Positions 4,309 to 57,150 of a DNA stretch of 64,000 nt are shown in pieces. The position numbers and the translations under genes were made by a program. Numbering within the stretch: the first letter of the stretch is position 1; each line of letters begins with the position of its first letter. Source of the stretch: Nymphon striatum (Eukaryota); contig JABFOP010000159.1 of assembly GCA_016618385.1 (NCBI GenBank), positions 566,555 to 630,554 of the forward strand, given 5' to 3'. The notes below the pieces were generated by a model, which was not told the DNA's origin, made no database searches, and saw nothing but the letters and a program-made list of their open reading frames with translations.

Positions 4309-4485
4309 GTAATCAAATTTTTATTTCATATATGATTAACGCATTCCGATGCATTCATTTTCTGTTACTAGGAAATTAGCCTAAGTACTAGATGAGATTC
4401 AACCAAGAGAATTGTGGAATTTAGAAGACCATATTCACACAATTAGGGAAATCTGCCCTAAAATATCATTTACCACCATGCCTAC

Positions 4486-11483: not shown

Positions 11484-11654
11484 GCTATGTAAGCTGCTTT
11501 GTTTTTTTTTATAAATAAAGTTTGTATAAAATGAATTTAATGCTTGTGCTTGGACTAATCTGGAATTCTAGTGAATCGCTGTGGACGTTTCGAAAAAATT
11601 AGGCAAGCGGAGTGAGCCAAAATTTTTTTCCTTTTATTTTATTATTTGTCTGTC

Positions 11655-12560
11655 TCATGTATTATGGATGGTTTTATTTAGATCCCTCTTTTCTAATAAG
11701 TCCTCATTATTTCTTATAATAAGGTCATTCCTATGATTCATTAGTGCTAAAGTTGTGGCAGAAAACTTATTCAGCGATTGACTGCAAGTTAGATTTGCTT
11801 TTTTCGCTGCATCTTTCATGGTCTTAATTAATTGGGAGTTTGCCTGATCTACATCTTCATCTATTTCAACTAAAACCTGAAAACTGTTGATTAATTCCAA
11901 TCTATATTGGTCTATTTGGTCCTGCGTGGCAACATCCGGTATGTGCCTTTTCATATCAGTTTTCTGCAATCATACTTGACATTTATGCATAGGGTCGCTT
12001 CCTGTAACTCGGTTCAAAGCCTCTATGTTGGTCAGTTTAGTATGTTTATTAGCTAAGATATAATCTACTTGATTTTTAGCTCTATTGCCCAAGTCCATTT
12101 ATGACTGTCTGATTTCTGGAAAAAAAATATTCATTATTCTGAAATTGTGGGATAAAAATTTTATTAAGGTCTGTCCTTTGTCATTTCGGTCTCCAAGACC
12201 GAAGTTACCTATACAGTCTTCCCCTATCTGTTTATCACCTACTTTGGCATTAAAATCTATAATCAAAGTGTAATAACTGTTTTTATTATTTATTAATGGT
12301 TTTAATTTAAGTCGTCATAGAATTTATTTATTTATTTCGACTACTGTGGATTCTGACGTAGATGCATATACCTGAATAATGGTTAGGGTGTGTCTACTGC
12401 TAATTTTTAATTTATTAATTTATTATTTATTATTTATTATTTCTAATTTATCTGTCTCATGTATAGTAGTAGCATATAGCAGCGTAGTAGTATATCCCAA
12501 TGTGGTTGCAGGTTCCATCTTGTCAAGCGATGAAAGGAAAATGTGTGAAGAATCACGTCA
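11655..12560 (-). mobile_element. 5' fragment of a non-LTR retrotransposon: APE-type endonuclease C-terminal half plus the EN-RT linker (IQVYA.TS, DFNAKVG, GNFGLGDRNDKGQTLIKF, VDYILANK, SDPMH, then NSFQVLVEIDEDVD...). No RT or 3' end is present.
   Basis: Minus-strand translation of 11655-12400 gives the characteristic LINE endonuclease motifs (ORF 11655-11969 plus upstream frames). Bounded by ~20-bp direct repeats ttatttRtctgtctcatgtat at ~11640-11668 and ~12433-12460. Confidence 0.55.
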
Positions 12561-12982: not shown

Positions 12983-15900
12983 ATGAAGCCTTCCTTTCCG
13001 ACAAATATCGCTCCTCTGTTTTCTCTTCAGGAATCAAAACGAAGCGCAGCTATTGAAGAAACTGAAGTGATGGAGAAACTCAAAGATTGTCTTCTGTCAA
13101 ATTATGTTTATGAGTTCATTTGTAAATTGGAAGAAAGTGATAAAAAAAGAAAATGCCCAAAGTGTCATTTTGAAACAACATCTTTTAAAAGAATGATTGC
13201 TCATGTAATTAAGCACAAAGTCTGGATTTGTCGATTTTGTTGCAGGGCATTCACCAATTACAAATTATTCCATTGCCATGTTCAAGAACACACTTGTGAA
13301 TTTGGGTACTATTGTTCATTTTGCTTTTTTTCTAGGTTGAAATCTGGAGTTTCTAGTCACATTGAAACAACTCATACAGCTTCAGAAAAAGCAGTAGTGA
13401 AACAGTGCCCGCTTCATGTCATTAATGGTATACTTTATGGATACCTTTGTTTAACTTGTGGAATTATTAAGCTTTCAGAAGATATTTTTCAAAACCATTT
13501 CCTTAAATGTAAAGGTTCTAAGTCTGTAAGGATCACTATGTCTAAACCAATTCACCGCAAGATGGCTGATCGTCGGTTCCTTAAGAAAATGAGTGCTGCC
13601 AAGGATGTGATTCAACGGATAAAAAGGAAGCGCAGATTTAAAGAAATTGGAAAATTTAAACTTCGCTCTCCTGGTGTAATAAAGTGTGAAATGTCACCAA
13701 ATGCTGATTCATCTGACTCTAAGAAATGTGTGAAAAAAATTGCAAATCTACCTGTGATATTGCCAAAAGATGAAAAGTCTATTTCATCTTCAACAGATAT
13801 AAAAAATATTATCAAAAAACAGAGTCCCAATACAATATCAGGTCCACAGTTATCAGCAGAGAAAACTGAAAGTAAAATTTTGGCTAATTTACCTTCATCA
13901 GAAATCAAAAATGTTGAAGAAATAATGAATACTAATGAAATGCCAGGTCCAGGAATGACGAACACTAATACGACGTCAGGTCCAGGAATGACGAACACTA
14001 ATACGACGTCAGGTCCAGGAATGACAAACACTAATACGATGCCAGGTCCAGGAATGACGAACACTAATACGACATCAGGTCCAGGAATGACGAACACTAA
14101 TACGATGCCAGGTCCAGGAATGACAAACACTAATACGACGTCAGGTCCAGGAATGACGAACACTAATACGATGCCAGGTCCAGGAATGACGAACACTAAT
14201 ACGATGTCAGGTCCAGGAATGACGAACACTAATACGATGTCAGGTCCAGGAATTACAAACACTAATACGATGTCAGGTCCAGGAATAACAAACACTAATA
14301 CGATGTCAGGTCCAGGAATAACTAACACTAATACGATGTCAGGTCCAGGAATGACGAACACTAATACGATGTCAGGTCCAGGAATGACGAATACAAATGC
14401 AATATCAAGTCCAGGAATGATGAATACTAATGCAATATCAAGTCCAGGAATGACGAATGCTAATGCAATGTCAGGTCCAGGATTGCTATTGTTACAAGGT
14501 CCTCAAACTTTTCAAGTCTCACCTTCGTTGGCTGTGTCACAAGCAGGTGCCACATTGCCTTCCATGAATTCTTCAGTGCAACTATCACAGGCAAGTATAA
14601 TAAATGTTCAAAATTCTCCTGTTTATGTTTTTCAACCGGCCCAGACTATATCTGTTTCATCTCTAGTGTCATCACTCCCAATAGTAAGTAGCTCTCAAGT
14701 TGTTCCTCATGCTGTGCTATATCCAGAACAAGTAGCAAATAATAATACAATTATGAATCTAAGAAAAATGCTTGGAATAGCTGAAGCGGGAGGAATAATT
14801 GATTTGAATAGTTCAATGTCAACTTTGCAGCCTTCTTTAATTCCTTCAATTGCTGAATTAGCTGTTAAACAATCTAATATTCCACAGTCTTCAACACTTT
14901 TGTGTGCCAATCCTGCTCCTGATGAAAACTTACTCCCAGCCTCCACATTTAAAGAAAATCATGGTGCAAGTGATAGCATAAATAAGCCCTCTGCTACTAT
15001 TAATCAAGCTATTACTTCACGAAAGGAAGTTTGTGATAAAGTCAATTCAGATGAGCTCTGCACTGTGTCCACCGAAACTGAATCAGATATTTCTATATCC
15101 AAAAAGCCTCATACTTCGGCAACAGATTTTGCAAAATCAACTAAATCTACAGATAGTATTAAAAATAAATCCCCCAATAATTTTATTTCCGAACATCCTA
15201 CTGTTAAATTAAAGGCTAAAAGTGACAAGTTGGATTCTTCTAAAATTTCAGCGAGTGAATCTCCATGCAAATCACAAAATGTAAGTCCTAATACTTCTGT
15301 TCGCGATTTATTAGATGATTGTGATAATGATAAACCAAATAAAGAATCTCAGTCAAACTACTTACCTTCCACTTTTGTCAGCCAAGATATTGTGATTCCT
15401 GACTATCAGGATAGCCAAGAAGACTCTGATGACAGTGACTTCCAATCCAATATTTCTTTTAGAAGCTCACGAAAACGAAAGAAAATTTCTGAAAATTCCA
15501 GTCATTCCATAGAATTCAAATCTCCTAAGTTTTCTTACGTTCCAGTTAAAAGTGAAAAATTTTCTCCAAAGAAAGTGGATACATCATCAGAAAGTTTTCA
15601 ATCGAGTAGTGTTACACTGCCTTCTAATATTTCTATGATTGACATAAATCAAACTACCCCATTACCAGAAAATGTGATTAGTACAGATGTTCGATGTCCA
15701 CAATGTAATTTGATGCAATCATTCACAGAATCTTCTCTCACCATGCATTTGTGTGAGCATTACAACCTCAATTGCTATGCCTGTGGTTTATGTGGTAAAG
15801 AATTGAAGGATCAGAAAGTTGTTGATTCTCATGCACTGGCAGAGCACAACCGTAAAGTAATACCGTATCGAGTTTTACGCTGCCCAGATTATATAAAGAT

Positions 15901-16480
15901 CATAGTTTCTGATGTCTTCTCTAAGCAAGAAAATATATCAGAAAGTCCACCGAGTGATCAAGAAGTAGCTCTGTTGAAATGCACAATATGCAAAGAAGAT
16001 TTTAAGACTAAACACACCCTTCGCTTTCATCTCAGAACATATCATTTTAAAAAAGCACGATGTGGTGTGTGTGGTGAGGCATTAGCATATCCTAGTACTG
16101 TAAGAAATCATCATGCCGTCAAACATGGTAGTCGTGTTCCAGTAAAGATTGCTGCCAATCCAAATTTTGATGATGAAGAATTCAAGAAGATCTTATCAGA
16201 AATGATTGCTTCATCCTTGAAGTCTTCAGGTGAAAGTTTGCCCCTTGCTTCAAGTCCGACTTCTTTGAAGAAGCAAAGAAAGGGTAAAACACATGACAAA
16301 GTTTTCATCCGTCAAAAAAAGAGCACATCTTCAACAAAATCTTCTGATGTAGATAATATTAATGAGAACAGTGATATTGTACGGATATCATTATCTGAAT
16401 TTCGGAAACGGTTACCTGAGTGTAAGGTTGTTCTCAAACCTTTGAGATTTCAGCTTGATAAAGATTTTAATTTTGCTTAA
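12983..16480 (+). CDS. C2H2 zinc-finger protein, 1165 aa, terminal exon. The exon probably begins at acceptor 12962/12963 (ttttatttcAG). N-terminal C2H2-like fingers (CPKCHF...H..H; CRFCCRAF...HCH; CSFCFF...H), a long S/T/N-rich low-complexity linker, then 4 C-terminal C2H2 fingers (CPQCNLM..HLCEH; CGLCGK..HALAEH; CTICKE..HLRTYH; CGVCGE..HAVKH). Stop TAA at 16478-16480.
   Basis: Longest ORF in the window, with no stops over 3.5 kb. C-x2-C...H-x3-5-H spacing read directly from the translation. AATAAA-like signal about 160 bp downstream (~16641). Confidence 0.6.
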   Translation: MKPSFPTNIAPLFSLQESKRSAAIEETEVMEKLKDCLLSNYVYEFICKLEESDKKRKCPKCHFETTSFKRMIAHVIKHKVWICRFCCRAFTNYKLFHCHVQEHTCEFGYYCSFCFFSRLKSGVSSHIETTHTASEKAVVKQCPLHVINGILYGYLCLTCGIIKLSEDIFQNHFLKCKGSKSVRITMSKPIHRKMADRRFLKKMSAAKDVIQRIKRKRRFKEIGKFKLRSPGVIKCEMSPNADSSDSKKCVKKIANLPVILPKDEKSISSSTDIKNIIKKQSPNTISGPQLSAEKTESKILANLPSSEIKNVEEIMNTNEMPGPGMTNTNTTSGPGMTNTNTTSGPGMTNTNTMPGPGMTNTNTTSGPGMTNTNTMPGPGMTNTNTTSGPGMTNTNTMPGPGMTNTNTMSGPGMTNTNTMSGPGITNTNTMSGPGITNTNTMSGPGITNTNTMSGPGMTNTNTMSGPGMTNTNAISSPGMMNTNAISSPGMTNANAMSGPGLLLLQGPQTFQVSPSLAVSQAGATLPSMNSSVQLSQASIINVQNSPVYVFQPAQTISVSSLVSSLPIVSSSQVVPHAVLYPEQVANNNTIMNLRKMLGIAEAGGIIDLNSSMSTLQPSLIPSIAELAVKQSNIPQSSTLLCANPAPDENLLPASTFKENHGASDSINKPSATINQAITSRKEVCDKVNSDELCTVSTETESDISISKKPHTSATDFAKSTKSTDSIKNKSPNNFISEHPTVKLKAKSDKLDSSKISASESPCKSQNVSPNTSVRDLLDDCDNDKPNKESQSNYLPSTFVSQDIVIPDYQDSQEDSDDSDFQSNISFRSSRKRKKISENSSHSIEFKSPKFSYVPVKSEKFSPKKVDTSSESFQSSSVTLPSNISMIDINQTTPLPENVISTDVRCPQCNLMQSFTESSLTMHLCEHYNLNCYACGLCGKELKDQKVVDSHALAEHNRKVIPYRVLRCPDYIKIIVSDVFSKQENISESPPSDQEVALLKCTICKEDFKTKHTLRFHLRTYHFKKARCGVCGEALAYPSTVRNHHAVKHGSRVPVKIAANPNFDDEEFKKILSEMIASSLKSSGESLPLASSPTSLKKQRKGKTHDKVFIRQKKSTSSTKSSDVDNINENSDIVRISLSEFRKRLPECKVVLKPLRFQLDKDFNFA
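13935..14478 (+). repeat. In-frame 33-bp coding minisatellite, about 16 tandem units encoding (S/P)GPGMTNTNT(M/T), inside the zinc-finger exon.
   Basis: Near-identical 33-nt units (ggtccaggaatgacgaacactaatacgatgtca) read directly. The protein shows GPGMTNTNTxS repeated. Confidence 0.9.
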
Positions 16481-19004: not shown

Positions 19005-19654
19005 TATTGACTTGGTAATAAATGTTTTATAAATGCTTTTTTTTTTTTTGTTTTTTTTTTTTTTTGTCAACCCTGTATGTTCAAGAATTGGCCTATATAG
19101 CCATAGCTGAAATTTTATAGCACTCCCCGCTTCCTTGTGAGAGTCTGGTTAGCAAACTTTAAGAGAGTAAACCCTAACAGAAAATCTGAAGTAGTAGCCC
19201 CTAAGGCGGTTATCAGGACTCCCGACATCTTTTACAGCCAAATTGGTGCCAAACGTCATGCTCTGTGTGCCTTTAAACTAAACCGGCGAGACCGAGAAGG
19301 GGGCAATGAACAATGGTCAGCTCAATATCTCCATAGACTCTGCCTAGGTTTGTGCGCCACGAAGAAGACACTTCGTTGCTGCTGACGGCGCACAAACCCA
19401 AAGCCGTATGCGACAGAAAGTTGTTGTGTTCAAAGATTATAATGTATGTCCTTACTTCTTCTCCCCCCACTTCCTCTCCATCTATCTCTCCCTCACTTCC
19501 TTCCCCACCTGCTCAATTACATGTTATCTATAATTGTACTTTTGATATTAAAGGCATACTCCACTCATTGACACTCATTTTGAATAATCTCTGAAATGAT
19601 AGAACAGGGCGAGTTAAGCAGATCCTGAAATTTTTTCTCTTATCTGACATCGTT

Positions 19655-20566
19655 AAATATTTTTTTAATTGATAAAACATTAATTGTAACGAGAATTAGA
19701 GAGCGGCCATTTTATTATCTACATCCGTAAATACGTCACCCACGCGACCCTGCTTCCGACATTACCATGCTGATCAACATTTAACCTCCTCCTTTTCGGC
19801 TCGAATCGATACGGTTTTATTCCATTTTTACCAGCATAATTTTGAAAAATATCTTCATCACTTGAATCAATAGAAGCTTCAACCATCTTGGTAAATGTCA
19901 CAGCGTGCCTGACGTCACGCCTGATAAGTCACGTGACTTTGTCCAAAATGGCAGCTGCTCTAATATCCAAGATTGTGGTTTTTAAAATGAGTTTAAAAAT
20001 ATTAAATGAACTCGAAAAAAATTCAAAAAATCAGGAATTGTTATTTGATATATGTACTATGGATTGGGAATTTTTTTTTTTTTACACCCAATGAGTGGAG
20101 TACCCCTTTAAATATTTTTTTAATTGATAAAACATTAATTGTAACGAGAATTAGAGAGCGGCCATTTTATTATCTACATCCGTAAATACGTCACCCACGC
20201 GACCCTGCTTCCGACATTACCATGCTGATCAACATTTAACCTCCTCCTTTTCGGCTCGAATTGATACGGTTTTATTCCATTTTTACCAGCATGATTTTGA
20301 AAAATATCTTCATCACTTGAATCAATAGAAGCTTCAACCATCTTGGTAAATGTCACAGCGTGCCTGACGTCACGCCTGATAAGTCACGTGACTTTGTCCA
20401 AAATGGCAGCTGCTCTAATATCCAAGATTGTGGTTTTTAAAATGAGTTTAAAAATATTAAATGAACTCGAAAAAAATTCAAAAAATCAGGAATTGTTATT
20501 TGATATATGTACTATGGATTGGGAATTTTTTTTTTTTTACACCCAATGAGTGGAGTACCCCTTTAA
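19655..20566 (+). repeat. Recent tandem duplication: 455-bp unit × 2.0, >98% identical. The unit's 3' part is the LINE family-1 3' tail (…caatgagtggagta(c/t)gcctttaa).
   Basis: Units 19655-20109 and 20110-20566 are virtually identical. Duplicated ORFs 19719-19901/20174-20356 and 19888-20094/20343-20549 in the ORF track confirm this. Confidence 0.9.
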
Positions 20567-21568
20567 ATAAAGTCAGTCTTTACTCACCATCTGAAGAGGA
20601 CTCATCTCTTACTGTCTCCTAGCTAGACCCACAAACATAACAAAAGTGGTCAATCAATCATAAAATCCTGAGTGTTTCAAGACGTCTGCCTTTTCGGAAT
20701 TTCAGACATTTAGTTTTGGCTGTATTTACTGTCTTTGAGTTTCTTTGAGAAGATTTCGCCAATTGACACTTTTCAACTTGACCATTGATCTCGATTTGTT
20801 AAATTTAGTGTTAGATGATAACGAAACAAACTACACTCTAACCATTAAAGAGAAAAACAAGAAACATTTTAATATACTTTTTTAAATTCTATTATTATAT
20901 AATAGCCCCATTTAAATTTTAGTAACCTACCATTGACACTAGATTTAAAAGGAAGAGAGAAAAGAAATGATCCCAGCCCCCTCCCCCCAGTCCCAGCAAA
21001 CAGGAAGGAGCCACAGCTTGTACCCAATATTTCAAAGCACCCCCTATCGGCCCCTATCTAAGGCATTTGGCAATTTCTCTATCCCCCCCCCTATCACGGG
21101 CTTTTATCACAATTTTCCACCCACTTTCTAGGGGGTTCAGGGATTCAGGTACCCCCTTCCTAAGGAATTCAAATATGTTAACCCCCTTTCTAGGGTATCA
21201 AAAATATCAAGAATTTACAAGACCCAAGAATATGTGTGCAAGACACACCTGTACAAAAGCACAATTATGAGCCTTCTGTTTTATTTTGTGCCTAATGGTG
21301 GCGCATGGTAATTCATTCTAATTTCGATTTTATATGCGATTTATGCCATTTGGTGACATTATTTGCGTTTTGCCGGTTTATTTACATTCGGTGATAACCA
21401 CTACTCATTTTTAATAATTCTCACATTTAACATTTTTTTGAACTGATATCTGACATTGGCACCCCCTTACCTCCCTCATATAAGGATGCGTTAAAGTTTC
21501 AATTTTTAACAAAAAAAGGATAGGTGAAATTGGGAACAAAATCTCCCAAAATGTTGCAACTATGTAGG

Positions 21569-22739: not shown

Positions 22740-25162
22740 TGTTACAGTCAATCTGTCAACCCAGACATTTGGCCAAATGCCTAGGCATTTGGTCAAATGC
22801 CCGTGGTAGTCAGGCATTTGATCAAATTCCTAAAAAATTCAGGCATTTGGCCAAATGACTAAAATATATGGTCAGGCATTTGACCAAAAGCCTGAAATAA
22901 TAAAAATAATAAAAAAATAACATTGACAATACAGCAAAATTATTTATTTTACTACAACCAGTGAAAAAATCATGAACAGATCTACTTGATCTAAGACCAT
23001 ACTACAGCACATACGAAATTCAGCACATGAGTAAGTTTTAAAGGTCGATTGTTAAGAAAATAGCAAGACTACTTGACAAAATACTTACATAAAGCAATAC
23101 CACATGCATCAAATAAAAACTGACATTCAAATAATTGGCAGACTAGACTAGCCCTAGGAGAGTCGGAACGTATCATTCCGAATAGGCAAGTCACATGTTA
23201 TGTCTTGGTAGTGAGTTACTTATTGGAGCAGTTCAAGCTGGAGTGACACCGACTGTTACATTTAAGATTGTTCTTGAAACACTTGCACCTGTTTGTTTTG
23301 CATCTAGAGGTACCAGAACAGTTGCACTTCACAAAGCCTTGGCCACCACTCTGGGACTCTATACCGACAGCAGAACGAAGAGACACGGTGATGTCGGTTT
23401 TGATGTCAGACAGGGTAAGGAGTTTCTGCGGGCACAGATCGAATTGGTTCCTGGAATACTTGCCATTCAAGACACCAGCAGGACAGGCAATGGAATACTG
23501 TTCACTGTCACTCACTTCAACGATTACACCAATGATGTTCCTTGGATCTCCACGGCCTCGATCTACAGATGGAATAGGCACGGCCACATTGTCGCCAACA
23601 ACTCCGGCTTTCATCACTACCTTACTCCGCTTCACCATTCTTTCTGCTTGCTGATGCTGTGCTTCTCTGGCTAGCTTACGTTTCCTGTTAATGTTCTGAC
23701 TATTTGGCAGGTCTGCTGAATTCGAGGGGGGCTGGTCAGTTGGTTGTGAGGTAGGCTGGTCTGTTGAATCTGAGGTGGGCTGGTCTGTTGAATCTGAGGT
23801 GGGCTGGTCTGTTGAATCTGAGGTTGGCTGGTCAGTTGGTTGTGAGGTAGGCAGGTCTGCTGAATCTGCTGAGTGGGGGCTGTCCACAACATTCAGGAGA
23901 TCATCCTCTGACTGTAGCTTGTGAAGGATGTCATGCGGAAGTGACGTCGAACTCAGCCCAACCTTGGCTTCAATGCCAAACAGAGCAGAGTATGGCGACT
24001 GCTTGATGCTGGCACTGTAGCTGGATTTCTTCATGAATTGGACAAACCGGATGCCAACTGACCAATCGGTGGTCTTGTTTTCGCTCATCCAGGCACACAA
24101 CATGTCCTTAATGTCGGAGTTTGCCCTTTCAACAGAGCCTTGACTCTGCGGATGTCGTGGCTTTCCATGAACAAGTAAGAGGCCTGTCCACAGCTCTTTC
24201 AGTTCACTGATCACTGCAGCTGTAAATTCAGATCCATTGTCACTCTGTAGGATCTGAGGAGCACCAAACAATAGAAAAATGTCCATCAGCTGATAGGCAA
24301 CCTCAGCAGCTCTCTTTGATGTAAGCGGGCGAAGGACACAGAACTTGGTCAGGTGATCTTGGTACACTAAAATCCACTTGTACGCACCTTGGGGTAAAGA
24401 CTGCATGTCAACCAGGTCGACTTGGCCGCGGGAAGTGAAGTCCTTGGAAAGAATCGGTCGAACAACAACCCCTTTGGTTGTAGGTCTTTTCCGTTTGCGC
24501 TGACAGTGGATGCACAGAGACAATTCCACAGAATCACGGGTGATGTTACAGTACTTTCTTGTGATTTCTTTCAACATACGATCCCTGCCGCCATGGCCAG
24601 TTGCAACGTGGGCTCTGTTGATGATATCGTATGTCTCTTCGATGTGAACGTAGTATAAGAGCTGCTCATCTGGGGATTCCCGCTTCTTGATAAGTCTCTC
24701 AGAATCACCGCACTGTAGCACTTCATACTTGGCCAAAAGGTAGTAGCCTTGGTGGGTCTTTGTTGATGGGTCACTGGTCAGACGCTTGACTTCTTCTATA
24801 ATGGAGTAGTACTGGTTCTTAGGAATGAGGACCTTCTTCAGCACCTCGTATTTATCAAACAGCGCTCTCTGAAACGTCTCTGCAGCGGTCGAATCTTCCT
24901 TAAAGTTAAAAATCTGCATATTTTTAACCACCTCATTTTCGTTTGCAAGTTACGGTGTTACGGTGTTTCGTTGAAATTAAGTGTTTGACATATTGACTAA
25001 AAGCATTCAGGCAATCCCTCTAACAATATGTCCAAAATTTCAGTCTTTTGGCCAAATGCCTACATTTTTTAGGCATTTGATCAAATGCCTGACCACAACG
25101 GACATTTGACCAAATGCCTAGGCATTTGGCCAAATGTCTGGTTTGACTGATTGACTGTAACA
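22740..25162 (-). mobile_element. Ginger-like cut-and-paste DNA transposon, apparently intact (2423 bp). Termini 5'-TGTTACAG...CTGTAACA-3'. TIRs ~125-145 bp (22740-22885 / 25020-25162) contain 3-4 copies of the palindromic motif AGGCATTTGGCCAAATGCCT. 4-bp TSD TATA (22736-22739 / 25163-25166).
   Basis: TIRs, TGTNR terminus and TSD read directly. A single uninterrupted integrase-type ORF lies between the TIRs. Confidence 0.8.
23216..24931 (-). CDS. Integrase-like DDE transposase (571 aa). N-terminal HHCC zinc-binding motif (HVATGH...C..C), then a retroviral-type DDE core (VDLVDMQ; ILQSDNGSEF; QSQGSVERAN) and an SPYSALFG motif (~PFELLYG). It has a PTSDSTDQ low-complexity repeat and a Cys-rich C-terminus (CNCSGTSRCKTNRCKCFKNNLKCNSRC).
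   Basis: ORF track. The motifs match the rve/integrase-core family by memory. The LLYYV stretch may correspond to the Ginger YPYY motif. Confidence 0.8.
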   Translation of the reverse strand: MVKNMQIFNFKEDSTAAETFQRALFDKYEVLKKVLIPKNQYYSIIEEVKRLTSDPSTKTHQGYYLLAKYEVLQCGDSERLIKKRESPDEQLLYYVHIEETYDIINRAHVATGHGGRDRMLKEITRKYCNITRDSVELSLCIHCQRKRKRPTTKGVVVRPILSKDFTSRGQVDLVDMQSLPQGAYKWILVYQDHLTKFCVLRPLTSKRAAEVAYQLMDIFLLFGAPQILQSDNGSEFTAAVISELKELWTGLLLVHGKPRHPQSQGSVERANSDIKDMLCAWMSENKTTDWSVGIRFVQFMKKSSYSASIKQSPYSALFGIEAKVGLSSTSLPHDILHKLQSEDDLLNVVDSPHSADSADLPTSQPTDQPTSDSTDQPTSDSTDQPTSDSTDQPTSQPTDQPPSNSADLPNSQNINRKRKLAREAQHQQAERMVKRSKVVMKAGVVGDNVAVPIPSVDRGRGDPRNIIGVIVEVSDSEQYSIACPAGVLNGKYSRNQFDLCPQKLLTLSDIKTDITVSLRSAVGIESQSGGQGFVKCNCSGTSRCKTNRCKCFKNNLKCNSRCHSSLNCSNK

Positions 25163-27559
25163 TATACACACATATTCTGCACAATTAAAATCACATACAG
25201 TGTTAAAATTATTATTATGGTTACAAAATTATTATAAATATTAAATTACAGAATTATTATTATTATAAATTTTAAATTACCAAATGGTGTTAAAAATCGA
25301 CATTATAAACGCAGATATGCATGTACAATTCAAAATAATTTCAACATTTCACTCATCTAAAGAAACTAATTTGTAGTAATTTTTCAAAAAGCTATTTATT
25401 TTCAAATTCTTTCATAAAATGTATAGTTCATAGAGTATGAATAATAACATTTCAACATTTACGACTAAATTTTGGTTAGAAATTGCAAAATTTTCATTTT
25501 GAAATTTTCATGCTATGTTTCGGGCTTCATTTCAAAATATATGCCATATTCACATATTTTGACAAAATTTCATATCAAATGGGAACTCATTACATATCCT
25601 CTATCAATAACATAAATCAAAATCCGGCTATACCAAATAAAGAAGGAAGCAATGAGATCGTACTATTTTTTTTTTTTAATTTGCGGACGTGACCGATACA
25701 TTTACTTCTTGCTTTTATAGGTCAATAATGTTTATCTAGCAATCACGTAGTGTAGAAACAGTCTAAGGTCATAAGCCCAATACACAGACCTACTCATCTG
25801 ATTTGGACCTTGTACCTAATCGTGTTGTGCGCAATCGGGTTGAGAACTTTCTCTTCGAGTGTGACAGACGTGTCAATTTTTGGAACTAAAAGTTTACTTT
25901 CTCAAAAGTTTTTCATTCATCAAAATACGACAGGTGCCCCAGCCTCGCCTACTAGTTGCTTAAAACCTGCCACATTTTTTTTTTTATCAAAATCCAATGT
26001 TTTTAAAGTGAGAAAGAAATGCATCTAAAAATTGCTATGCTTAGATCTCACTCAAATCTTCTACTCATTTCACTCATCTAAAGAAAATAATTCGAGTATT
26101 GCGTTGCGACAGGGTCATGTTGTCATGTGTAATATACATATATAGAGGATATCAAATTGGAACGAATTACATATCCTCTATATCACATAATATCTTAAAA
26201 ACATTGAAAATAATTAAAAAAACAATTTATGGATTCAATTTCCATTCTAACATTATTATATGTGACCAAACGACTCCTTTGTAGCATTGGTTTATTGTAT
26301 AGATTACAACAATCCGCGTAAAAATAGTTCCATTAATTAAGAGATATTCAACAGTTCCACAAGAAAATATGTTAATATCATATCATATCCAATACGGCTT
26401 TTATAGGATGGAATCCTGTAGCCGTTCATAACAAGTCTTCCGTGCTGCTCTGCTATGTGGCATATAATTTGAAATTAGTAATATCAATAACAGTTATGCC
26501 TGAAACATAGAATATTTAACAAATGCATATAGTCCATGAGCCAGCCATCAACATTTTGGAGTTGACTACCAGAAAGAAAATTGTGAGTAAAAAATTATTT
26601 ACAAAGTGACGTCAGTCATTCATAAATTTCTTCTGCTTTTTCTCATTCTCAAAACTGATCGGGCGCGGTTAGGTAAATATTTCTTTTATTATAATAAATA
26701 TTATAAATAATATGAATGTTTATATTAGCTAGTAAAACGTGGCATATAAATAAGTGTGTGTCGGTGTATAAGAAATGCAATTAAAATTTAAACGCCAAAG
26801 AAGTAATAAATTAATAAAAAAGTATTTAAAGTAATTAGTGCATGATCGTGGCATTCAAATCTAGAACATATCATAGGTCATAACCGTGATAACGCTTTAC
26901 AGTTTACGTGTTAATTAACTGCTTCACATTTTCGGATAAATACTCATCCAAAATGTTATAACAAAATGAATTCCTATTTGATATGAAATTTGTGAAACTA
27001 GCCAACATTGTATTTCAGCGAGCTAATCATAAATTCACACTCCTAATGTCAATATATAATATTTAACAACGATTTACGGTGTATTTAGCTAGCATTATCA
27101 AGAAAAAAAGATGGCACTTATTTTACTGTGAGCGGAGGAATATGTGATTCTTTTTCTTACTGTGATCATCATCATTCTCTCTGTCTTACAGTTTAATATA
27201 CATTTGTATAGGAATAACTTTGTTTTTTCAATCTTTTTTTATATTACACACGTGTAATATAAAATTGATTGGAAAAACAAGGTTAATCCTAAGCAAAGTC
27301 ATATTACACATGTTCACAATTATTAACCTGTAAAAACGCATATTATGTGATATACATATATATTTATTTGATCTACAAGCGTATGTGAAATGTAGTTATG
27401 AGATAATTGTGAAAATGAACACATACATACATTAAAATAAAATAAGGAACAAATTACAAAAGGAGTTTGAAGAAGTGAGCAGAAGCAGGGTGTCAAGGTT
27501 GACTCAAGGGTGACTCCAATTAAAAAGGAACTAATAACTAATTAATAATACAATACAAA

Positions 27560-30289: not shown

Positions 30290-31500
30290 GATTTTCTGAA
30301 CGCTCTTCACAGCTGAAGTGTATCCAACAGTTTACTCTCAGTACTCTCCTACTCTTCTTAAACAAGTAAAAGTAGTACCTGTATTTAAGAATAAAGGCTC
30401 CCTTTTTGACTAAACAATTATCGACCAATATCTTTACTCTCCAATATTGATAAAATTTTTGAAAAGCTTGCACACAAAAGAGTAACATCATACCTTAATT
30501 TTAAGAAAATTATAAAAAATGAACAATTTGGTTTCCGCAGTAAACACTGAACTGTGCATGCTCTCATAAGCCTTAGAGAAAACATTCGTAAGGCTCTATA
30601 TAGACAAAGGTAAACTGTCATGTGGGGTTTCCATTGATCTACAGAAGGCTTTTGATACCGTTGATCACGAAATTTTACTAATCAAACTTAGGCATTATGG
30701 AATAAGGGGCGTTGCCAATATGTGGTTTAGATCCTACCTCTCTGAAAGCAAGCAACTTGTTTCCCTCTCCGGTTTTTCCTCTACTCTTATTTTAAATGGT
30801 GTCCCCCAAGGCTCTGTATTAGGCCCCCTTTTATTTTTACTTTATATCAACGATCTACCCAACTCCATCAAATTTTCCGAAACTTGCCTTTTTGCTGATG
30901 ACAATAGCCTACTTTATTCTGATTTTGACCTTAAATTGATAGAACAAATGATGAACCGTGATCTTGAACATCTTGTCAACTGGCTAAATGCCAACAAAAT
31001 TTCACTGAATGTTTCTGAAACTGAAGTTGTCCTCTTTCGAAATGCCCGTAAACGAGTCCACTATGATATTAATCTGAAAATAAATAATCAACCACTCATC
31101 ACTTCTTATGTTAAGTACTTATGATACTTACGATACTTATGATACTTACGATAATGATATTAAATGGGTCATGGTCCCATCATTTAATATCATTCTCAGC
31201 TCGAATCAATACAGTTAATAACACTAATAATCATTAAAGTATCCTTTCTCCACAAATGTATATACGCAAGAGCAGTGTGCAGCGACTGTGACGTAACGAC
31301 TTGTGGAAAGACACGTCACAGCGTGACGTATCCACAATGGCAGCTCCAGAGTAGTTGATTTTAAAATATGTTTAAAAATATTAAATGAACTAGAAAAAAA
31401 TTTTAAAAATCAGGATTTGTTGTTTGATATATGTACTATGGGTTGGGAAAGTTTTTTTTTATACACCCAATGAGTGGAGTATGCCTTTAAGTGATCAGAA
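30290..31500 (+). mobile_element. 5'-truncated LINE (family 1). Frameshifted RT domains 1-6 (…FIDLQKAFDTVDHEILL.KL; GVPQGSVLGPLLF; FADDNSLL; SETEVVLF) to 31125, an internal deletion, then the family-specific 3' tail 31160-31500 ending …CAATGAGTGGAGTATGCCTTTAAG.
   Basis: ORF 30720-31124 plus upstream frames carry RT motifs. The tail matches 62340-62660 and 19655-20566. Confidence 0.7.
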
Positions 31501-36899: not shown

Positions 36900-37705
36900 C
36901 CTAACCTTGCGTAGAAAGTGTTTTTTAATAGTCTAAACTTGACCTTTAAAGGAATCCCAATAGATAGAGATATACTGACCCACCTCAAATTTGCAGGCGA
37001 TGTAGTCCTGCTGCAGGAGTCCCCTCAGGAGCTTCAACTTCTTATGATTGAAGAACTGAGAACTGCTAATAATACAGTAGGTTTGGAGGTTAATTTGAGT
37101 AAAACAGAGGCCATGTTTAACAGAAATGTAGTAACCCAACCCATTAGCACAGGGAATGCGACCTAAGACCAAGTAAATAGATATACTTATTTAGGACAGC
37201 TTATCTCAATAGATAAAGACTGGAAGCCTGAAGTGATACGAAGTATTACCGTAGGTTGGCAAACTTTCAATCTATACCTATCTGCATGAACCAGAAGGCA
37301 TACGAAAAGCGTATCCTACCTGTTCTCACGTAAGAGTCGGAGACCTGGGAAATTTCAGACATCTTGAGAAAATTAGAAAATGCTCAGCACAGCCTGAACA
37401 GAAAGATCTTAGGTGTCATCTAGGAATAGAAAGACCAATGGTTGGGTGAAGACGCACACAAGGTGTACATATTTAATCCAAACAGTTAAGAATAGCAAAT
37501 GGAATTGGGCTGGGCACTTGACCCGTAGAATAGACAATAGATGGACCACTAAAACTACAATTTGAATGGGATGCAGAATAGGGTGTAACCGAAGAGAAGG
37601 TGAGTGGAAGATATGCAAAGTTTGACTGGAAAGCTATATGGGAGGCCTTTGCTCATCAAATGGTGATGATGATGGTGATGGTGATGGTGATGGTGCTGGT
37701 GCTGG

Positions 37706-40745: not shown

Positions 40746-41749
40746 GATACCCCATTAGAATATTTAATTAGATCAAGTAATTGTGAGACTTATGTAATTC
40801 ACGAATCTATTTTAATTCATTTTCAAAACTCACTATCTATCGATTATGTGATAAACAGAATACCGAATTCGTCTAGTTGAAAGTGAGATGTATGAAACTA
40901 GCTAACATTTATTTAATTTCTGTAAAAAATATCGCTGATTTGCAAAAATATTATCAAATTTTTTTTAAAATTATTTTTTCCCCACCGAAAACGCAATGTT
41001 TATTTCAAGTATTACGTTTATCACGTGGTCCGATGACAGTCACCTAGTCTGTGTCGACCAATCATATTGCTCGACGGGAAGTTTGTGACGAAATATAGTC
41101 TAAATTGATATAAAAAAAACACGTTTTCGGAGGGAAAAAATTATTATAAAAAAATGTTGATAATATATTTGAAATCTGTGATACTTTTTACATATAATAA
41201 CTTCAAGTCTAAAAGTACACAAAAATCATCAAAGTGCCCCAAGTTGCCCAACGGCCGACAGGCTATGGAAGTGACCTGATCTGACCTGACCTGACCTGAC
41301 CTAAAAGTACCTTAGCCTCCCTTTAACGATTTATTGATCAGCACTGACATACATGGTGGAAACATGCTTGGGTTTACTATATACCCTTGAGTTTACTTTA
41401 TTGCTGGTTGTCGATGTTGATTTTAAGAGCAAATGATTTAAAACATACTTGAAATTTGGTTTCGTTGACACTTGAAATGGCCGGCATATTATATATACAA
41501 CGGCATAATATAAGTGTACACAACAACTTTTCAATTTCATACATATTTCTGTTTGAAACGTCTATGATCTCACCGATAGTGCTGAATAATTCCAAATAAT
41601 TTAGCGAATTGTTGCCTTCTATACTAGTTTTATTGGCTTTAACATTTCTTTAAGCAGACAGGCTGCTATACAATCGTTATGTATCTCCGGTTATATTTTG
41701 AACTGAGACCAAAATCTAGCCACACTTTACAAAAATAGTTTGTGTATGT

Positions 41750-44162: not shown

Positions 44163-46566
44163 CATCCTATTCAATACTTTTAGTATTTGGGCAGACGATG
44201 TTTTGATAACGCGTCCTTCCGGTCGAGCACCAGCAAATCTGTCAGCAAGCTGGGAACGCACATCCGCCATAGCGCGGTTATCTTGCTTACTGTCGTGCCA
44301 TAACTGAAAGGATAATGTATAGATAATAAAATGCATGCATACAAAGCATCTTTAATTCCATTGGCTCATTACATACATGACAATGTGATTAGTATTTGGA
44401 AATTAAATCTTCTGATACGTAGTGAATTTCGGCTCACCCTGTACAACTTGTTTCGAATTTTTTCGAAGGGCCTAAATTGCTGTCTTTCTGGACTATGCAG
44501 CTTTCAGATTATACTTTTACTTAAAAAATTCACCCAAGCTTTAAACGTTGTTGACGTTTTATTCAGTAACCAAGCGATTTCGGCATATAACTTGGCCATC
44601 ATCAGGGTTAAACGACGATATGAATGGATCAATCAAATCTTTTAAACCATTGAAAAATATTGAAAAAGGAATGACTTACATTTAAATAATAACTATGGTA
44701 TATTAGAAACGCAGTAAGGAATAAATAAAAAAATATATATACAGAAAATATGTTTGTAAATTGTAAAGCGTGGATTTTGATTTTGGTCTCAGTTCAAAAT
44801 ATAACCAGAGATACATAACGTAGTATTTTAAAATAAGCTGCTAAACTTGGCATAAACTTCCGTCAAACACTGTCTTCAATACATGCCCTCAGTGAGTGTG
44901 ATTTTACATCAGCTTTTCTGCGTCATAAAGGAAAGTTAAAGCCGATAAAACTAGTAGAAGGCATATCTGTTGGAGACTTCTATCTTCTATGCTCTCACCA
45001 ATAATGCTGAAGAATTCGAAAAAGTATTCGGAATTATTCAGCGTTATTGGTGAGAGCATCATGCCCGTAGCCAGGATTTTTTATGGGGCGGGGGGGGTGC
45101 CTCTTTCGAATATAAGGACCGGTTTCAACATAAAAGTATACAGAAGATACGACGTGGCGAGTTTGGTATTATGTTTATCACATAATCAATAGATAGCTTT
45201 GAAAATTAATTAAAATTAATTAAAAATAGATTCAGTTTGCACAAATGTATGAAGAAAATTGTAAGGTTTTATCAAAGAGCCCCCGGCCAAATCATTAAAG
45301 ACATTTTCCGATCTGTCTCCTCTTTAAAATGCTCGTAAATAAATTAAACTGACACTATTGAAGCCCCCGGTCAAGCCATTAAAAGTGGAACCCGGTCAAA
45401 TCAAATGCAATAAAAACATCTGAGTAAAGTGGAAAGCCATTAAGAAAACCATGAAGAGTCATTTGTCATTGTTCAAGATTATTGTCACTTTAAATCGGTT
45501 ACCCATTAAAATCATCTCTCCCCGTTAAGAAGTTTATCGTTTTATAACACGTTTTTACACGTGTGTTTATACCATTTTTATGTCCACTGAGATCGGCAGA
45601 ATAACCGCCCTATTATGTGATAAACATTATTATTTGCAATGATGACAAAGTCTAGGGATAAAATTGCAACTGCAGCTCAACTGGGCAAGCAAGCTTACGA
45701 CAGGAAATTAAAATTGACCAGAAACACAACGATATTTATTTTTGAAATATTTTTTAAAAGCGCATATTCAAGTGTAATTTTTCAAAGTGGACCTTTGGCT
45801 GTTTGGGGGGGGCACCCTAAACCCCCCCCCCCTGAAATTTAAAAGTGTGTATGTGCACTGTGTAATATGCCAGCGATTGTAAACATTAATTACTCCTAAA
45901 ATCGAGAACCAGTCGCTAAGTAAAATGAATTGTGAACCACCGAATGGTTTCCACCGTGTATGCCAGTGCTTGTAAATACATTATTTAGAGCTAATTACGT
46001 TTCTTATCCGGCAGAACATCCGGCAGATCCGGCAAATCTATGTCAATATATTGATCCAGTAGGTAACGGGGAAGTTACAGAAGGGGCGCTATAGCATCAA
46101 CTGGTGGTATGATGATGAACAAGTACCAGAAGAGGTTTGCTATTATTTGGATTAGAATGGTGGAATCTCTTCAGACACTGAAGTTGGATCGTGTGTGTTC
46201 TCTTGATTCAAATCATTCAGATATAGGTGAATAGACTTAGTTGTTGGATTTAAACCGCAAAGAAAAGTATTGAGTAGGGATTTCAGGTCACGTGATTTAT
46301 CGTCTGACAAGCTATGATGGCTACATCTTCATCAATTTTACTCGTTTTTCAACAGATAATTTAATTATATCGAGTTGATTATATGCATACAAACTTTACT
46401 TTATGTAAGAATAATATCTTTTTATATCACATAATATGGGCGTTTTTACGGTTTAATAATAGTGAACGTGTGTAATATAAATAAAATTGAAAAAACAAGG
46501 TTATTCCTATGCAGAGAGTGTACTATAAATTTCTTTCTCTCTCTATAGAGAGAACGCTGATAGTAG

Positions 46567-49500
46567 GGGAGCTAGCCCAGTTTCATTTACACTTTTGGGA
46601 ACGAAAGGTTTGATGGCTTCATACTATGAAAGGTACTTTGGTAATGAAAAAAACCCATTTCTTAAGTTCTGCATTCCCGGCCTTAAGGAGGTGCAGGGTC
46701 CTAATCCCCCCAAAAACGGGACCCTCATTTACACTTTTAAGAACGACACTGAAATTTATGTGGATTACAGCCCTCATATCACTTGTTCCGAATTAGCAAC
46801 TTAAGAAAAAATATTTCCAGGCAAAATGCACTTAAGAAGGGCCTAAAAAGAGTCCCAAAACGGGTCTCAATTACACTTTTGGGCACAAAGCTGAAATTGA
46901 TGGTGAAGTATCCCCTCATATCACTTATCACAAATGTGTAACTTAAGAAAAGATAATTCATGGCATTCTAGCTTAAGAAGGCTCAAATTTACCAAAATGG
47001 GTCTGAAAGGGTCCAAATTGCATTATTGAGAACAACATTGAAATTCATGTGGGTTACGCTCCTCATATCACTTGTTCAAAATTAGCAACTTAAGAAAAAA
47101 TATTTCCAGGCAAAATGCACTTAAGAAGGGCCTAAAAAGGTCCCAAAAGGGGTCTCAATTACACTTTTGGGAACAAGGCTGAAATTGATGGTGAGGTATC
47201 CCCTCATATCACTTATCACAAATGTGTAACTTAAGAAAAGATAATTCATGGCATTCTAGCTTAAGAAGGCTCAAATTTACCAAAATGGGTCTGAAAGGGT
47301 CCAAATTGCGTTATTGAGAACAACACTGAAATTCACGTGGGTTAGCAACTTAAGAAAAAATATTTCTAGGGGAAAGGCACTTAAGAAGGGCCTAAAAAGG
47401 TCCCAAAAGGGGTCTCTATTACACTTTTGGGAACAAAACTGAAATTGATGGTGAAGTATCTCCTCATATCACTTACCACAACTATATAACTTAAGAAAGA
47501 ATAATTCGTGGCATTCTGGCTTAAGAAGAGTCCAAAAAGGGACCCATACTTTTGAGAACACTGAAATTCACAATGGTTAAACCCCTCAATTCTCTTGTCA
47601 CAAAAAAATCAAGAGATTATAGGGTTGATCACAACATTTAATGTGGAACGTTATTGTATAAGAGGTACATGAATGGTAGATGATAAATTTAATTGAGTTA
47701 TCCTGCACAGGCCTACTGATCATGGCAAATATCAAATAAAGTCGCTTTAGCCAAATTTATCAATGTTACTTTCAACGTCTTCAGTGTCTCAATTGGACTC
47801 AGGCCTCCTCAGCATCTTCATCCTCTAGACCAGTGCTATCTGGAACAACTAAGTCTGGCATCTGAAGGCATATAAACCGCGCTGTTTGATATGAGTTGTC
47901 TACAAGTTCCCATCCTTGTTTATGTTATTTTGGGATGTTGCTATTGCAGGCAGCATGCCATGTCATTGCAACAAAGTTGCTACGATGAATTTTTTGTAAG
48001 ACTACATTTTCACAGGGAGGGATGTTGCTTGCATCTGCACCTTTCAATCTCGCAAAAGGATTCTTACCCCTCTTCAGGCCATACGATTTCGCGAACACCT
48101 GGTATCTGTGCTTGTTTAGTGGCAATGTCTGTTTTGCCCCATACAGCTTTGAAGTATTCTTCTAACGCCTCACATGTGGCTCGATCAACTTCACCTGTTG
48201 CCAAAGCTGCAAAAGCATCAAGAAAAGAATAATTTTCCTCTGCAATTTTCAGGGGGCGTTTCTTCCCCTTCCTAATACAAAATGAGGCGTAATCCCAACC
48301 TGTGAACACATGTATTCCTGGAAGGGATTTACATAGGCGTAACCTTGGTTGCAATTTCAGATATGTTAATGTAGCGCCTGCTATCCTTACCAGAAGTGCC
48401 AACATCCATCCATATCTTAGTCTATACACCATGGGAATAGTGTATACGAATTATTGATATATCTGTATCTGTTGCTCTAACAACTATGTCACCTGGTTGC
48501 TGGCAGGTTGAGTTAGCCTAAAATGCATGCAGGAATATTCTTGTGTCAGCATCTGGATGGTTGCACTCTAAACGAGGAACTTCTGACACATCCACAACTC
48601 CATCGGCCCCTCCAAACAGATAACAGTTGGTGTCAACGCCAATGCAGACCTTTGCCACTCAGACTAGCAGAATGACATGGTTGACTCCAATCTTTTACCA
48701 GAAAGCGGGGAAATTGCTGCTTGAATGAAGTTGACTTCAATGCCTTCTCAAGACTTCATGGACGAATTTGGTCTAGACCAGTAATGCGATACACAGAATA
48801 TTCTATACCTCGGCGTTCGTGTTCATTGCTCTTTATTCTGGGTTCCTCATATGTGTCAAAGAGTATGTCAACACGTTTGGAGGGGTACGACAGGATTGCA
48901 TGTAGCACAGAAGGTGACAGTTTCCCATACGTTGGAAGCAGGCAATGCATGAGAAAGTTACCATCTATAATAGTACTCTTCACTTTCGTTGGCGAACCAT
49001 GTTCTGCTACCCTGCTCTCCAGGTATTTGAACAGATCACTCTTGGTTCCATGGCTCATGGTCACCATTGTGCCGTCTGTTCTGCTCAAGGTTAGAGGAAC
49101 AGGAGTCAAGGGCCCACCTCAGGTGTCTATCCTGAGCTTTAAATAGTGATGTACTCACTCAGGTCTATTTATGCCTGAGGTACAGGTCCTTGAATTCTCT
49201 ATGGTCTACCGAAAATTCATAAGTATAACTTTTCCACCTTGTTTCAATTCCGCCCTACATTTTCAGCCTACAATACTCACTATACAGTTTCATGTTGTAT
49301 TGATACGAGTGCAAGGATTGCAATCTTACCATTGGAAATGCCCTTCTTAAGCCAGAATGCCACGAATTATTCTTTCTTAAGTTATATATTTGTGATAAGT
49401 GATATGAGGGGATACTTCACCATGAATTTCAGCTTTGTTCCCAAAAGTGTAATTGAGACCCCTTTTGGGACCTTTTTAGGCCCTTCTTAAGTGCATTTTG

Positions 49501-50044
49501 CCTGGAAATATTTTTTCTTAAGTTGCTAATTTTGAACGAGTGATATGAGGAGCGTAACCCACATGAATTTCAGTGTTGTTCTCAATAATGCAATTTGGAC
49601 CCTTTCAGACCCATTTTGGTAAATTTGAGCCTTCTTAAGCTAGAATGCCATGAATTATCTTTTCTTAAGTTACACATTTGTGATAAGTGATATGAGGGGA
49701 TACTTCACCATTAATTTCAGCTTTGTTCCCAAAAGTGTAATTGAGACCCGTTTTGGGACTCTTTTTAGGCCCTTCTTAAGTGCATTTTGCCTGGAAATAT
49801 TTTTTCTTAAGTTGCTAATTCGGAACCAGTGATATGAGGGCTGTAATCCACATAAATTTCAGTGTCGTTCTTAAAAGTGTAAATGAGGGTCCCGTTTTTG
49901 GGGGATTAGGACCCTGCACCTCCTTAAGGCCGGGAATGCAGAACTTAAGAAATGGGTTTTTTTTCATTACCAAAGTACCTTTCATAGTATGAAGCCATCA
50001 AACCTTTCGTTCCCAAAAGTGTAAATGAAACTGGGCTAGCTCCC
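46567..50044. mobile_element. Foldback-like element (~3.5 kb). The long inverted arms (46567-~47530 and ~49340-50044) are themselves tandem arrays of ~135/270-bp subrepeats (…ctcatatcacttatcacaaatgtgtaacttaagaaaagataattcatggcattctagcttaagaagg…). The 1.8-kb centre carries a PIN/FEN-like nuclease gene.
   Basis: Outer 150 bp of each arm are near-perfect reverse complements (gggagctagcccagtttcatttacacttttgggaacgaaaggtttgatggcttcatactatgaaaggtac…). Arm interiors are the same tandem array in opposite orientation. Confidence 0.55.
48064..49109 (-). pseudogene. Frameshifted PIN-domain / FEN1-XPG-like (H3TH) nuclease gene. N-terminal segment (49109-48756: TIIDGNFLMH…RVDILFDTYEEPRIKSNEHERRG), middle segments only in shifted frames (…CYLFGGADGVVDVSEVPRLECNHPDADTRIFLHAF; GDIVVRATDTDISIIRIHY) and a C-terminal segment (48432-48064: …GIHVFTGWDYASFCIRKGKKRPLKIAEE…).
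   Basis: ORFs 48756-49109(-) and 48064-48432(-), plus manual translation of the intervening 320 bp in two other frames. The motifs (IDG…, EADTR-like DADTRI, HAFTGCD…GKGK) resemble a widespread PIN/H3TH nuclease family by memory. At least two frameshifts are required. Confidence 0.4.
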
Positions 50045-51250
50045 TGACTATGATGATCACAGTACGAAAAGGAATCATATATTCCTGTGCGCACAGTAAA
50101 AGTACAGCCATTTTGTTTCTTAATAATGATAGCTAAATCGTTGTTAAATATTATATTATATTAGGAGTACGAATTTATGATTAGCTCGCCGAAATACAAA
50201 GTTGGCTAGTTTTATAAATCTCGTATATCAAATGGGAATTCATTTTGATATAACAATTTGGATGAATATTATACCGAAAAATTGTATTTACAATATTAAC
50301 TCACCTTGATTTGTTGATCAGTTTTGAGAATGAAAAAAGCAGCCGATATTTTTGGCCTTAGGAATTTGTAGTAAATGAATGCAAAATAGTATGAATGAAA
50401 TTATACAGCGCCATAGTTAACTGTTTTCATGTCTCAAAAGTACTAAGATAAATTTAGAAATATCAATTTGTTACATAATCTATGTTTCAGGCATAATTGT
50501 TAATGATATTACCAATATCAAAATATATGTCCTATTAACATATTTTCTTGTAGAACTGTTAAAACATCTCTTAATTAATGGGACTATTTTTATGCAGATT
50601 ATTGATATCTGAAGTATAAAATATTGCTACAAAGGTGTCCTTTGGTCACATGTAATATTGATGAAATGGAAATTGAATCCATAAGTTGTTTTTTTTAATT
50701 ATTTTAAATGTTTTTAAGATATTATGTGTTATAGTAGATATATCTTAGCTATGATATTTTAGAATATACCATACATTATCTTAATAAGTTCTGCGTTAGC
50801 CGGCACTTTAGGAATCGCTGTCTCGGGTATGCATAGGCATTTTTGTCGTGGCACCATGTTTTTCACTCGGGCAGCAAAGGATGGTTGTTGATTGATCAGG
50901 TCTTAAGATAACTTGTGAACAACTTACAGATCTGGAATTTATCAGAAATTTAGTCAGAACTTTTCCCTACATATTTCAATTCACGCATAATTTTTAAGAG
51001 GTCTGGTTGAAGAATGGCGACCATTTTTACTTGTAATTTCATTAGAATTAGATGATTTGTGGTGAGAATTTAATATGTGCATCCATGAATATAAAATATA
51101 AGTTATTCTGAACATTTTGATATATAATATAAATAAAATTTCATAAAAAATAAGCATCTTAAGGTATATTTGAATGACCCGGTGTGTGACTGATTCGTTG
51201 TCGGACTGGGAGTACTGCCATTAGCAACACAATATAATAACAACATAATA

Positions 51251-56779: not shown

Positions 56780-57150
56780 ATCTCCAAAACTATTTACAGC
56801 TTGCTTGGAAAATGTATATAGATGCCTAAACTGGACTTCTAAAGGATTCCCCATAAATGGCGATAGACTGACCAACCTCAGGTTCGCCGACGATGTAGTC
56901 CTGTTCTCGGAGTTCCCTCAGGAGCTTCAACTTATGGTTGAGGAACTGAGAACTGCCAGTAATAAAGTAGGTTTAGAGATTAATTTGAGGAAGACTAAGG
57001 TCATGTTTAACAGAAATGTAGAAATCCAACCCATTATGACAGGAAATGTGGCCTTGGACCAAGTTGATAGATATATTTATTTAGGACAGCTTATCTACAA
57101 AGACGGGAGCCTGAAGTGAGGCGATGTGTTGCCCTAGGTTGGCAAGCTTT
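56780..57150 (+). mobile_element. LINE family-2 RT fragment (…RLTNLRFADDVVLFSEFPQELQLMVEELRTASNKVGLEINLRKTKVMFNRN…YLGQLI), truncated at both ends. It is followed by the 420-bp repeat 57160-57625.
   Basis: ORF 56805-57119. Paralogous to 36918-37166. Confidence 0.7.

Follow-up and report, generated by a model that had tools for sequence, protein, structure and literature searches.

Which kind of mobile element combines long inverted arms, built from tandem repeats, with a broken nuclease gene at its centre? This question is raised by a locus within a 64-kb stretch of contig JABFOP010000159.1 of the sea spider Nymphon striatum; the whole stretch is designated the window in the following, and positions refer to it unless a related locus is named. 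A previous interpretation made from the letters alone (the sequence-only reading) had recognised a foldback-like structure carrying a PIN/FEN-like nuclease gene and had considered such a nuclease unknown in any transposon superfamily, leaving an uncharacterised mobile element or a captured host nuclease as options. We find that positions 46561–50050 very probably represent a non-autonomous, internally deleted and foldback-shaped copy of a cut-and-paste transposon of the AcademX type. AcademX is one lineage within Academ, a superfamily of eukaryotic DNA transposons (Kapitonov & Jurka 2010; Kojima 2020, PMC7165386), which is defined by a transposase that shares one protein with an XPG nuclease and a Cys8 finger and which generates 3-bp target site duplications (TSDs) in animals (PMC7165386).

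The assignment relies in the first place on the homologues of the central open reading frame (ORF). A profile search with the nuclease ORF family returned 17,161 clusters at E≤1e-3, revealing a very large, metazoan family, and in family proteins of 1,200–1,700 aa the matched module is located at the C-terminus. The reference Academ transposase-domain sequences (Data S3 of PMC7165386) were compared with these long family proteins. The nearest published domains, Academ-1_CSa and Academ-2_Lgigantea, aligned over their full lengths to the N-terminal halves of proteins P0025, P0030, P0137, P0099 and P0055 with E-values of 1e-56 to 1e-68, while more distant Academ families gave values of 1e-19 to 1e-45. 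Accordingly placed within these full-length homologues is an Academ DDE transposase with the motifs DN.D, TYDL, G.FH and a terminal DL.LEQ. The only Pfam family to appear with these full-length proteins, DUF6589 (PF20231), matched the transposase core of P0025, P0030 and P0099 weakly, with scores of 22–28 bits that lie around the cutoff of 27 bits. Since these matches fall where the published Academ transposase core aligns, DUF6589 may be, or may overlap with, the Academ-type DDE transposase domain.

The closest intact homologue of the window ORF, P0001 (458 aa, 65% identity in a search of a large protein collection), first looked like an intact stand-alone nuclease gene, but was rejected as such: immediately upstream and on the same strand, its contig carries ORFs that represent the Academ transposase region in frameshifted form, and P0001 is thus a fragment of a full-length gene. 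This bears on the idea of a nuclease-only lineage of self-sufficient transposons that would use the FEN-like nuclease as their transposase and to which the window copy would belong as a dead member. Many database entries are indeed nuclease-only proteins of 300–500 aa. However, most of the short entries in the protein-search list derive from contigs of ~1–5 kb, the loci examined did not include an intact nuclease-only element with bounding arms, and the Nymphon copies share inactivating mutations, which together with the P0001 contig renders such a lineage very improbable. As the long homologues and the P0001 contig carry Academ transposase regions, we conclude that the nuclease is an integral domain of the AcademX transposase. 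The nuclease type that the sequence-only reading could not place in any superfamily is therefore precisely the one whose fusion to a transposase defines AcademX. Of note, the family also includes P0046, an 821-aa protein labelled as belonging to a Desulfocapsa metagenome-assembled genome, which is probably a eukaryotic contamination of the Desulfocapsa bin.

How much of this protein is left in the window copy? All peptide segments quoted in the sequence-only reading were recovered in the translations of the ORF remnant. When P0001 and P0025 were used as queries in tblastn, four segments were detected in frames -3, -1, -2 and -3, and the remnant has accumulated three frameshifts and four premature in-frame stops, in agreement with the earlier view of a decayed copy whose frame is broken at least twice. 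The nuclease remnant is presumably inert. Homology to the full-length proteins begins at 'PLTPVPL', corresponding to about residue 790 of the 1,268 residues of P0025, and the aligned segments exhibit 36–50% identity each to the C-terminal module of this protein. The transposase part of P0025 had no match anywhere in the element. Therefore, we regard the element as an internal-deletion derivative, for which the absence of any sequence coding for an Academ-type DDE transposase domain is expected. By homology and fold, the remnant corresponds to the XPG-type nuclease that is fused C-terminally to the AcademX transposase. Several predicted proteins of N. striatum match the ORF as well, at up to 100% identity over short stretches.

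The nuclease of the window ORF adopts a FEN/EXO1/XPG-like fold, i.e. a PIN-like α/β core followed by a helix-3-turn-helix (H3TH), with conserved carboxylates. At the sequence level this relationship is barely visible. No Pfam family, including XPG_N, XPG_I and 5_3_exonuc, matched the repaired translation at E≤10, and a search of the PDB sequences with the same translation yielded no match. The sole sequence-level match to a PDB entry is marginal (E 0.9) and aligns the family motifs 'vfD..PSiK..ER.RR' and 'ftGcDY' with the corresponding motifs of EXO1. Because this match covers the catalytic VFD...ER.RR and GCDY motifs, the PIN-like plus H3TH interpretation of the sequence-only reading is upheld, and the Pfam profile search, which had been proposed as a test capable of refuting it, produced a false negative. 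In common with the structure-specific 5' nucleases FEN1, EXO1, XPG and GEN1, the module possesses the carboxylates DG, FD, EAD, DTD and GCDY in the same order; FD and GCDY are aligned, and DG, EAD and DTD presumably correspond to those of EXO1. Sequence identity to these enzymes amounts to only 8–14%. In contrast to a cellular repair enzyme, the window nuclease is a domain of a transposase polyprotein. Kojima proposed that the XPG-like domain couples transposition to DNA repair (PMC7165386), a suggestion that we regard as speculative.

The architecture surrounding the ORF remnant is real, as a repeat finder detected inverted pairing of positions 46707–47269 with 49342–49904 (563 nt, 98% complementary), far above chance, and an outermost pairing of 46560–46715 with 49895–50051 (97–99%). 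The ends can be aligned as far as TAGTAGGGGAGC on the left side and TAGTCAGGGAGC, read inward, on the right; therefore, the element spans 46561–50050 and has a length of 3,490 bp. The ends previously placed at 46567 and 50044 were six bases short on each side, the additional bases being TAGTAG on the left and TGACTA on the right. Tandem Repeats Finder assigned periods of 141 bp and 288 bp to the arms, and counting of k-mer spacings gave 141/142 and 288/289 bp in both of them. Inversion and tandem construction of the arms had thus been recognised correctly, while the unit size of ~135/270 bp was slightly too low and the arm lengths of ~965 and ~705 bp have to be replaced by ~1,050 bp (7 units) and 709 bp (5 units), respectively. 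Together, the arms cover about half of the element. In the left arm, the two innermost units are a duplicate of the adjacent pair. Each unit contains two CTTAAG palindromes ~30 bp apart. Within the window, 24 of the 29 CTTAAG sites lie in the arms, corresponding to 13.5 sites per kb as compared to 0.08 per kb outside the element. No arm units were found in the window beyond the element, and no repeat or protein match was obtained for the spacer that separates the left arm from the ORF remnant. The features are compiled in Table 1.

Table 1. Features of the AcademX-type element and its immediate junctions (positions in the window).
Feature	Position	Strand	Basis
TSD, left copy (TGA)	46558–46560	.	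Junction sequence; 3-bp overlap of the flanks in the paralogue without insertion
Left terminal motif TAGTAGGGGAGC, AcademX-type terminus	46561–46572	+	End alignment; motif pattern scan
Left arm, 7 tandem ~141-bp units, 288-bp higher-order repeats, ~1,050 bp	46561–~47612	+	Repeat searches
Unique spacer downstream of the ORF remnant	47613–47798	-	
Decayed XPG/FEN-like nuclease module, C-terminal part of an AcademX transposase	47799–49118	-	tblastn, translations, homologue, fold
Unique spacer between right arm and ORF remnant; ~790 transposase codons absent here (internal deletion)	49119–49341	-	
Right arm, 709 bp, reverse complement of the left one, with 5 tandem units; terminus, read inward, TAGTCAGGGAGC	49342–50050	-	
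TSD, right copy (TGA)	50051–50053	.	

Insertion by transposition is traceable at the junctions. The element is flanked on both sides by TGA, i.e. by a 3-bp duplication as it is typical for AcademX in animals. The flanking sequences (46413–46560 and 50051–50741) are part of a different repeat, which is dispersed and spans at least 1.2 kb, and a paralogue of this host repeat without the insertion is present 19 kb away on the opposite strand (27364–26171, ~80–90% identity). Mapped onto this paralogue, the left flank extends to 27169 and the right one begins at 27171, so that both overlap by exactly the 3 bp TGA (27169–27171). This exact overlap at a paralogous empty site supports a 3-bp TSD.

Are these ends shared with elements that still encode a transposase? 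Indeed, an end motif, TAGTNNRGGAGC, is common to the ends of the window element, to the ends of transposase-encoding elements of a firefly and a hydroid and to the one end that is captured in a metagenome contig. The pattern TAGT-N2-3-RGGAGC occurs in the 64-kb window only at the two element ends, with 0.2 occurrences expected by chance, and is also found at the ends of the related loci L003 and L008 and at the right end of L002. In L003, from Hydractinia symbiolongicarpus, the element (5041–12133) is bounded by 450-nt terminal inverted repeats (TIRs) matching at 99% (5041–5490 and 11684–12133), which begin with TAGTCCAGGAGC and enclose two ORFs which jointly span the transposase-nuclease protein. 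The element in L008, from the firefly Pyrocoelia pectoralis (3528–11021), carries at both ends TAGTAGGGGAGCC, identical to the left 12-mer of the window element, and its intact 1,377-aa ORF aligns to residues 43–1214 of P0025, covering transposase and nuclease. Both elements are flanked by a 3-bp TSD, CTA. L002 is the metagenome contig, in which the element encoding P0025 ends 590 bp past the stop codon with TAGTTGGGGAGC. The window copy accordingly shares the terminal motif of its TIRs with autonomous members, and the terminal 12-mer is conserved from cnidarians to arthropods.

The resemblance extends into the arms. Periodic subterminal repeats were detected in L002 (5171–5592), in L003 (5041–5490 and 11684–12133) and in L008 (3528–~4300 and ~10300–11021), and the period is 138–142 bp in all four elements, i.e. 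including the window copy. The palindrome is CTTAAG in the window element and in L002, and CTCGAG in L008. Moreover, arm and ORF are combined in further Nymphon sequences: in the predicted N. striatum protein P0005, a peptide derived from an arm is fused to the beginning of the nuclease remnant, and in P0017 the nuclease remnant runs into arm-unit sequence. Since three relatives possess such termini and arms and P0005 and P0017 join both parts, we consider arms and ORF to be components of one AcademX-type element. Taken together, the window copy resembles AcademX in its nuclease module of a transposase polyprotein, its 3-bp TSD and the distribution of its family across animals, many members of which carry a Cys8 motif, whereas it differs in being non-functional, in lacking the transposase part, in the tail of its nuclease (see below) and in the expansion of its arms to 7 + 5 tandem ~141-bp units, which confers the foldback appearance.

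Some observations weigh against this assignment. The terminal motif is missing from 7 of the 11 related loci that were fetched (L004–L007 and L009–L011). Six of these seven are contigs of 2.8–10.4 kb, several of which were probably cut before the element ends; L011, however, retains over 4 kb of downstream flank past the protein match, and L007 is a chromosomal locus of the fire ant Solenopsis invicta with 8 kb of flank on each side, in which neither recognisable Academ termini nor bounding inverted repeats were found. The copy in L007 could be old or domesticated. The TSD of the window element lies within an (ATG)n-like stretch, where, in principle, a difference of 3 bp could also be mimicked by slippage of a microsatellite. 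Furthermore, an acidic tail takes the place of the Cys8 finger in the sub-lineage that comprises the window copy and the proteins nearest to it, while seven other long family proteins (P0202, P0227, P0233, P0236, P0252, P0253 and P0271) carry the eight-cysteine motif C-x-C...C-x-C directly after the nuclease. Finally, no transposase-coding partner with exactly these arms was among the loci examined, and its action in trans is what we infer. As a separate observation, positions 8001–11351 of L007 encode an intact 1,116-aa family member that is situated within the span of an ABC-transporter gene model.

Could the locus instead belong to a separate Foldback-type or uncharacterised transposon group that has captured a host FEN/XPG nuclease gene? 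The tandem-built arms, which account for about half of the element, do resemble those of Drosophila FB and Galileo, and the window copy encodes no transposase. However, rather than being a host gene, the nuclease forms the C-terminal domain of Academ transposases, as seen in thousands of proteins, homology of the ORF starts abruptly in the middle of the protein as an internal deletion would give, and termini and 3-bp TSD match those of transposase-encoding AcademX elements of other phyla. Hence, a captured nuclease, as it had been considered in the sequence-only reading, is largely refuted, and we give this scenario very little credence. With FB and with Galileo, a member of the P superfamily, the window element shares the long tandem-repeat inverted arms comprising about half of the element and the short unique centre. 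FB and Galileo generate TSDs of 9 bp and 7 bp, respectively. They differ from the window element in superfamily, and the latter has a 3-bp TSD, Academ-type termini and the remnant of an Academ transposase in its centre; this TSD and these termini place it outside the Drosophila FB family. The foldback shape recurs across several superfamilies and is no evidence of relatedness.

A chance juxtaposition of two inverted 141-bp satellite blocks around an unrelated Academ fragment, to which the very repeat-rich window and the decayed Academ nuclease fragments nearby (41.3–41.6, 44.8–45.0 and 45.9–46.1 kb) might point, is highly unlikely, as the Academ terminal motif sits exactly at both boundaries, which also show the TSD and an empty paralogous site, the same ~140-bp periodic arms are present in full-length relatives, P0005 and P0017 combine arm and ORF in the same order, and no arm unit occurs elsewhere in the window.

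The Nymphon sequences also bear on the history of the copy. The frameshift upstream of 'LPGIHVFTG' is common to the window copy, P0005, P0015 and P0017, whereas the frameshift after 'CEALEEY' is private to the window copy. As the Nymphon copies share the upstream frameshift, the family multiplied after decay of its ORF. This points to amplification by mobilisation in trans, with segmental duplication as a possible alternative. Autonomous AcademX elements encode a single large protein in which a DDE transposase at the N-terminus is combined with an XPG/FEN-like 5' nuclease at the C-terminus, complemented by the Cys8 finger in many lineages. The window copy has lost the transposase-coding part, leaving only the broken nuclease remnant between long arms. 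For its mobilisation, a full-length AcademX relative would supply the transposase in trans, which would recognise the terminal motif and probably also the repeated subterminal units; the element would then be excised and reinserted elsewhere with a 3-bp staggered cut. The extra arm units could have arisen from unequal exchange within the arrays.

What appeared as a new nuclease-bearing foldback transposon, and thus as an uncharacterised mobile element, is consequently a degraded member of a known family, in which the fused XPG-like nuclease is an already published hallmark. What is gained is a documented sea-spider family of non-autonomous AcademX elements with foldback shape, including its exact ends, TSD and empty site, and a terminal motif and ~140-bp arm repeats common to AcademX of a cnidarian, a beetle, a sea spider and a metagenome eukaryote. 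Judged from the sequences of four loci, the shared terminal motif and the ~140-bp periodic arms could be a lineage-wide end structure of AcademX, and both features could aid annotation of the poorly characterised Academ ends. When metagenome contigs were scanned for exact matches to the TIR core, nothing was returned, and a protein-guided metagenome scan yielded three loci, none with recognisable ends. In the searchable literature we found no description of long arms with ~140-bp-phased palindromes or of a cross-phylum terminal 12-mer for AcademX, and nothing relevant on Academ elements with foldback shape or subterminal repeats; both the phased palindrome arms and the 12-mer may therefore be new. 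Tentatively, the ~140-bp arrays may be envisaged as a functional part conserved in this clade of AcademX that provides ordered binding sites for the transposase or its nuclease/Cys-rich modules, and whose expansion lets coding-dead foldback derivatives multiply, although we would not yet favour this idea.

The surroundings of the element contain further remnants. Short, decayed Academ-type nuclease fragments of other, more divergent families were detected by tblastn (E 1e-5 to 1e-8) at 44756–44980 (+), 45948–46137 (+) and 41330–41598 (-), and the region upstream of the element is a nest of Academ debris. An ORF on the minus strand (23216–24931, 571 aa) has a Cys-rich C-terminal tail, CNCSGTSRCKTNRCKCFKNNLKCNSRCH, that resembles the Cys8/CXC motif following the nuclease in some AcademX proteins; judging from its motifs, this ORF may encode an integrase of the retroelement or Ginger type. 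A reverse-transcriptase-like ORF fragment (GVPQGSVLGPLLF...) is located at 30720–31124 (+), and a short peptide that matches the N-terminus of the N. striatum protein P0015 is encoded twice, at 37113–37262 and 57003–57145; fragment and peptide copies are probably debris of long interspersed nuclear elements (LINEs). An uninterrupted 1,165-aa ORF at 12983–16480 (+) has Cys/His-rich, zinc-finger-like stretches at both ends and, midway between them, a tandem repeat (13940–14482, 33 bp x 16.5) encoding MTNTNT(M/T)SGPG. Additional tandem arrays are present at 19653–20569 (455 bp x 2.0, 99% identity) and at 8704–9326 (194 bp x 3.3, 79%).

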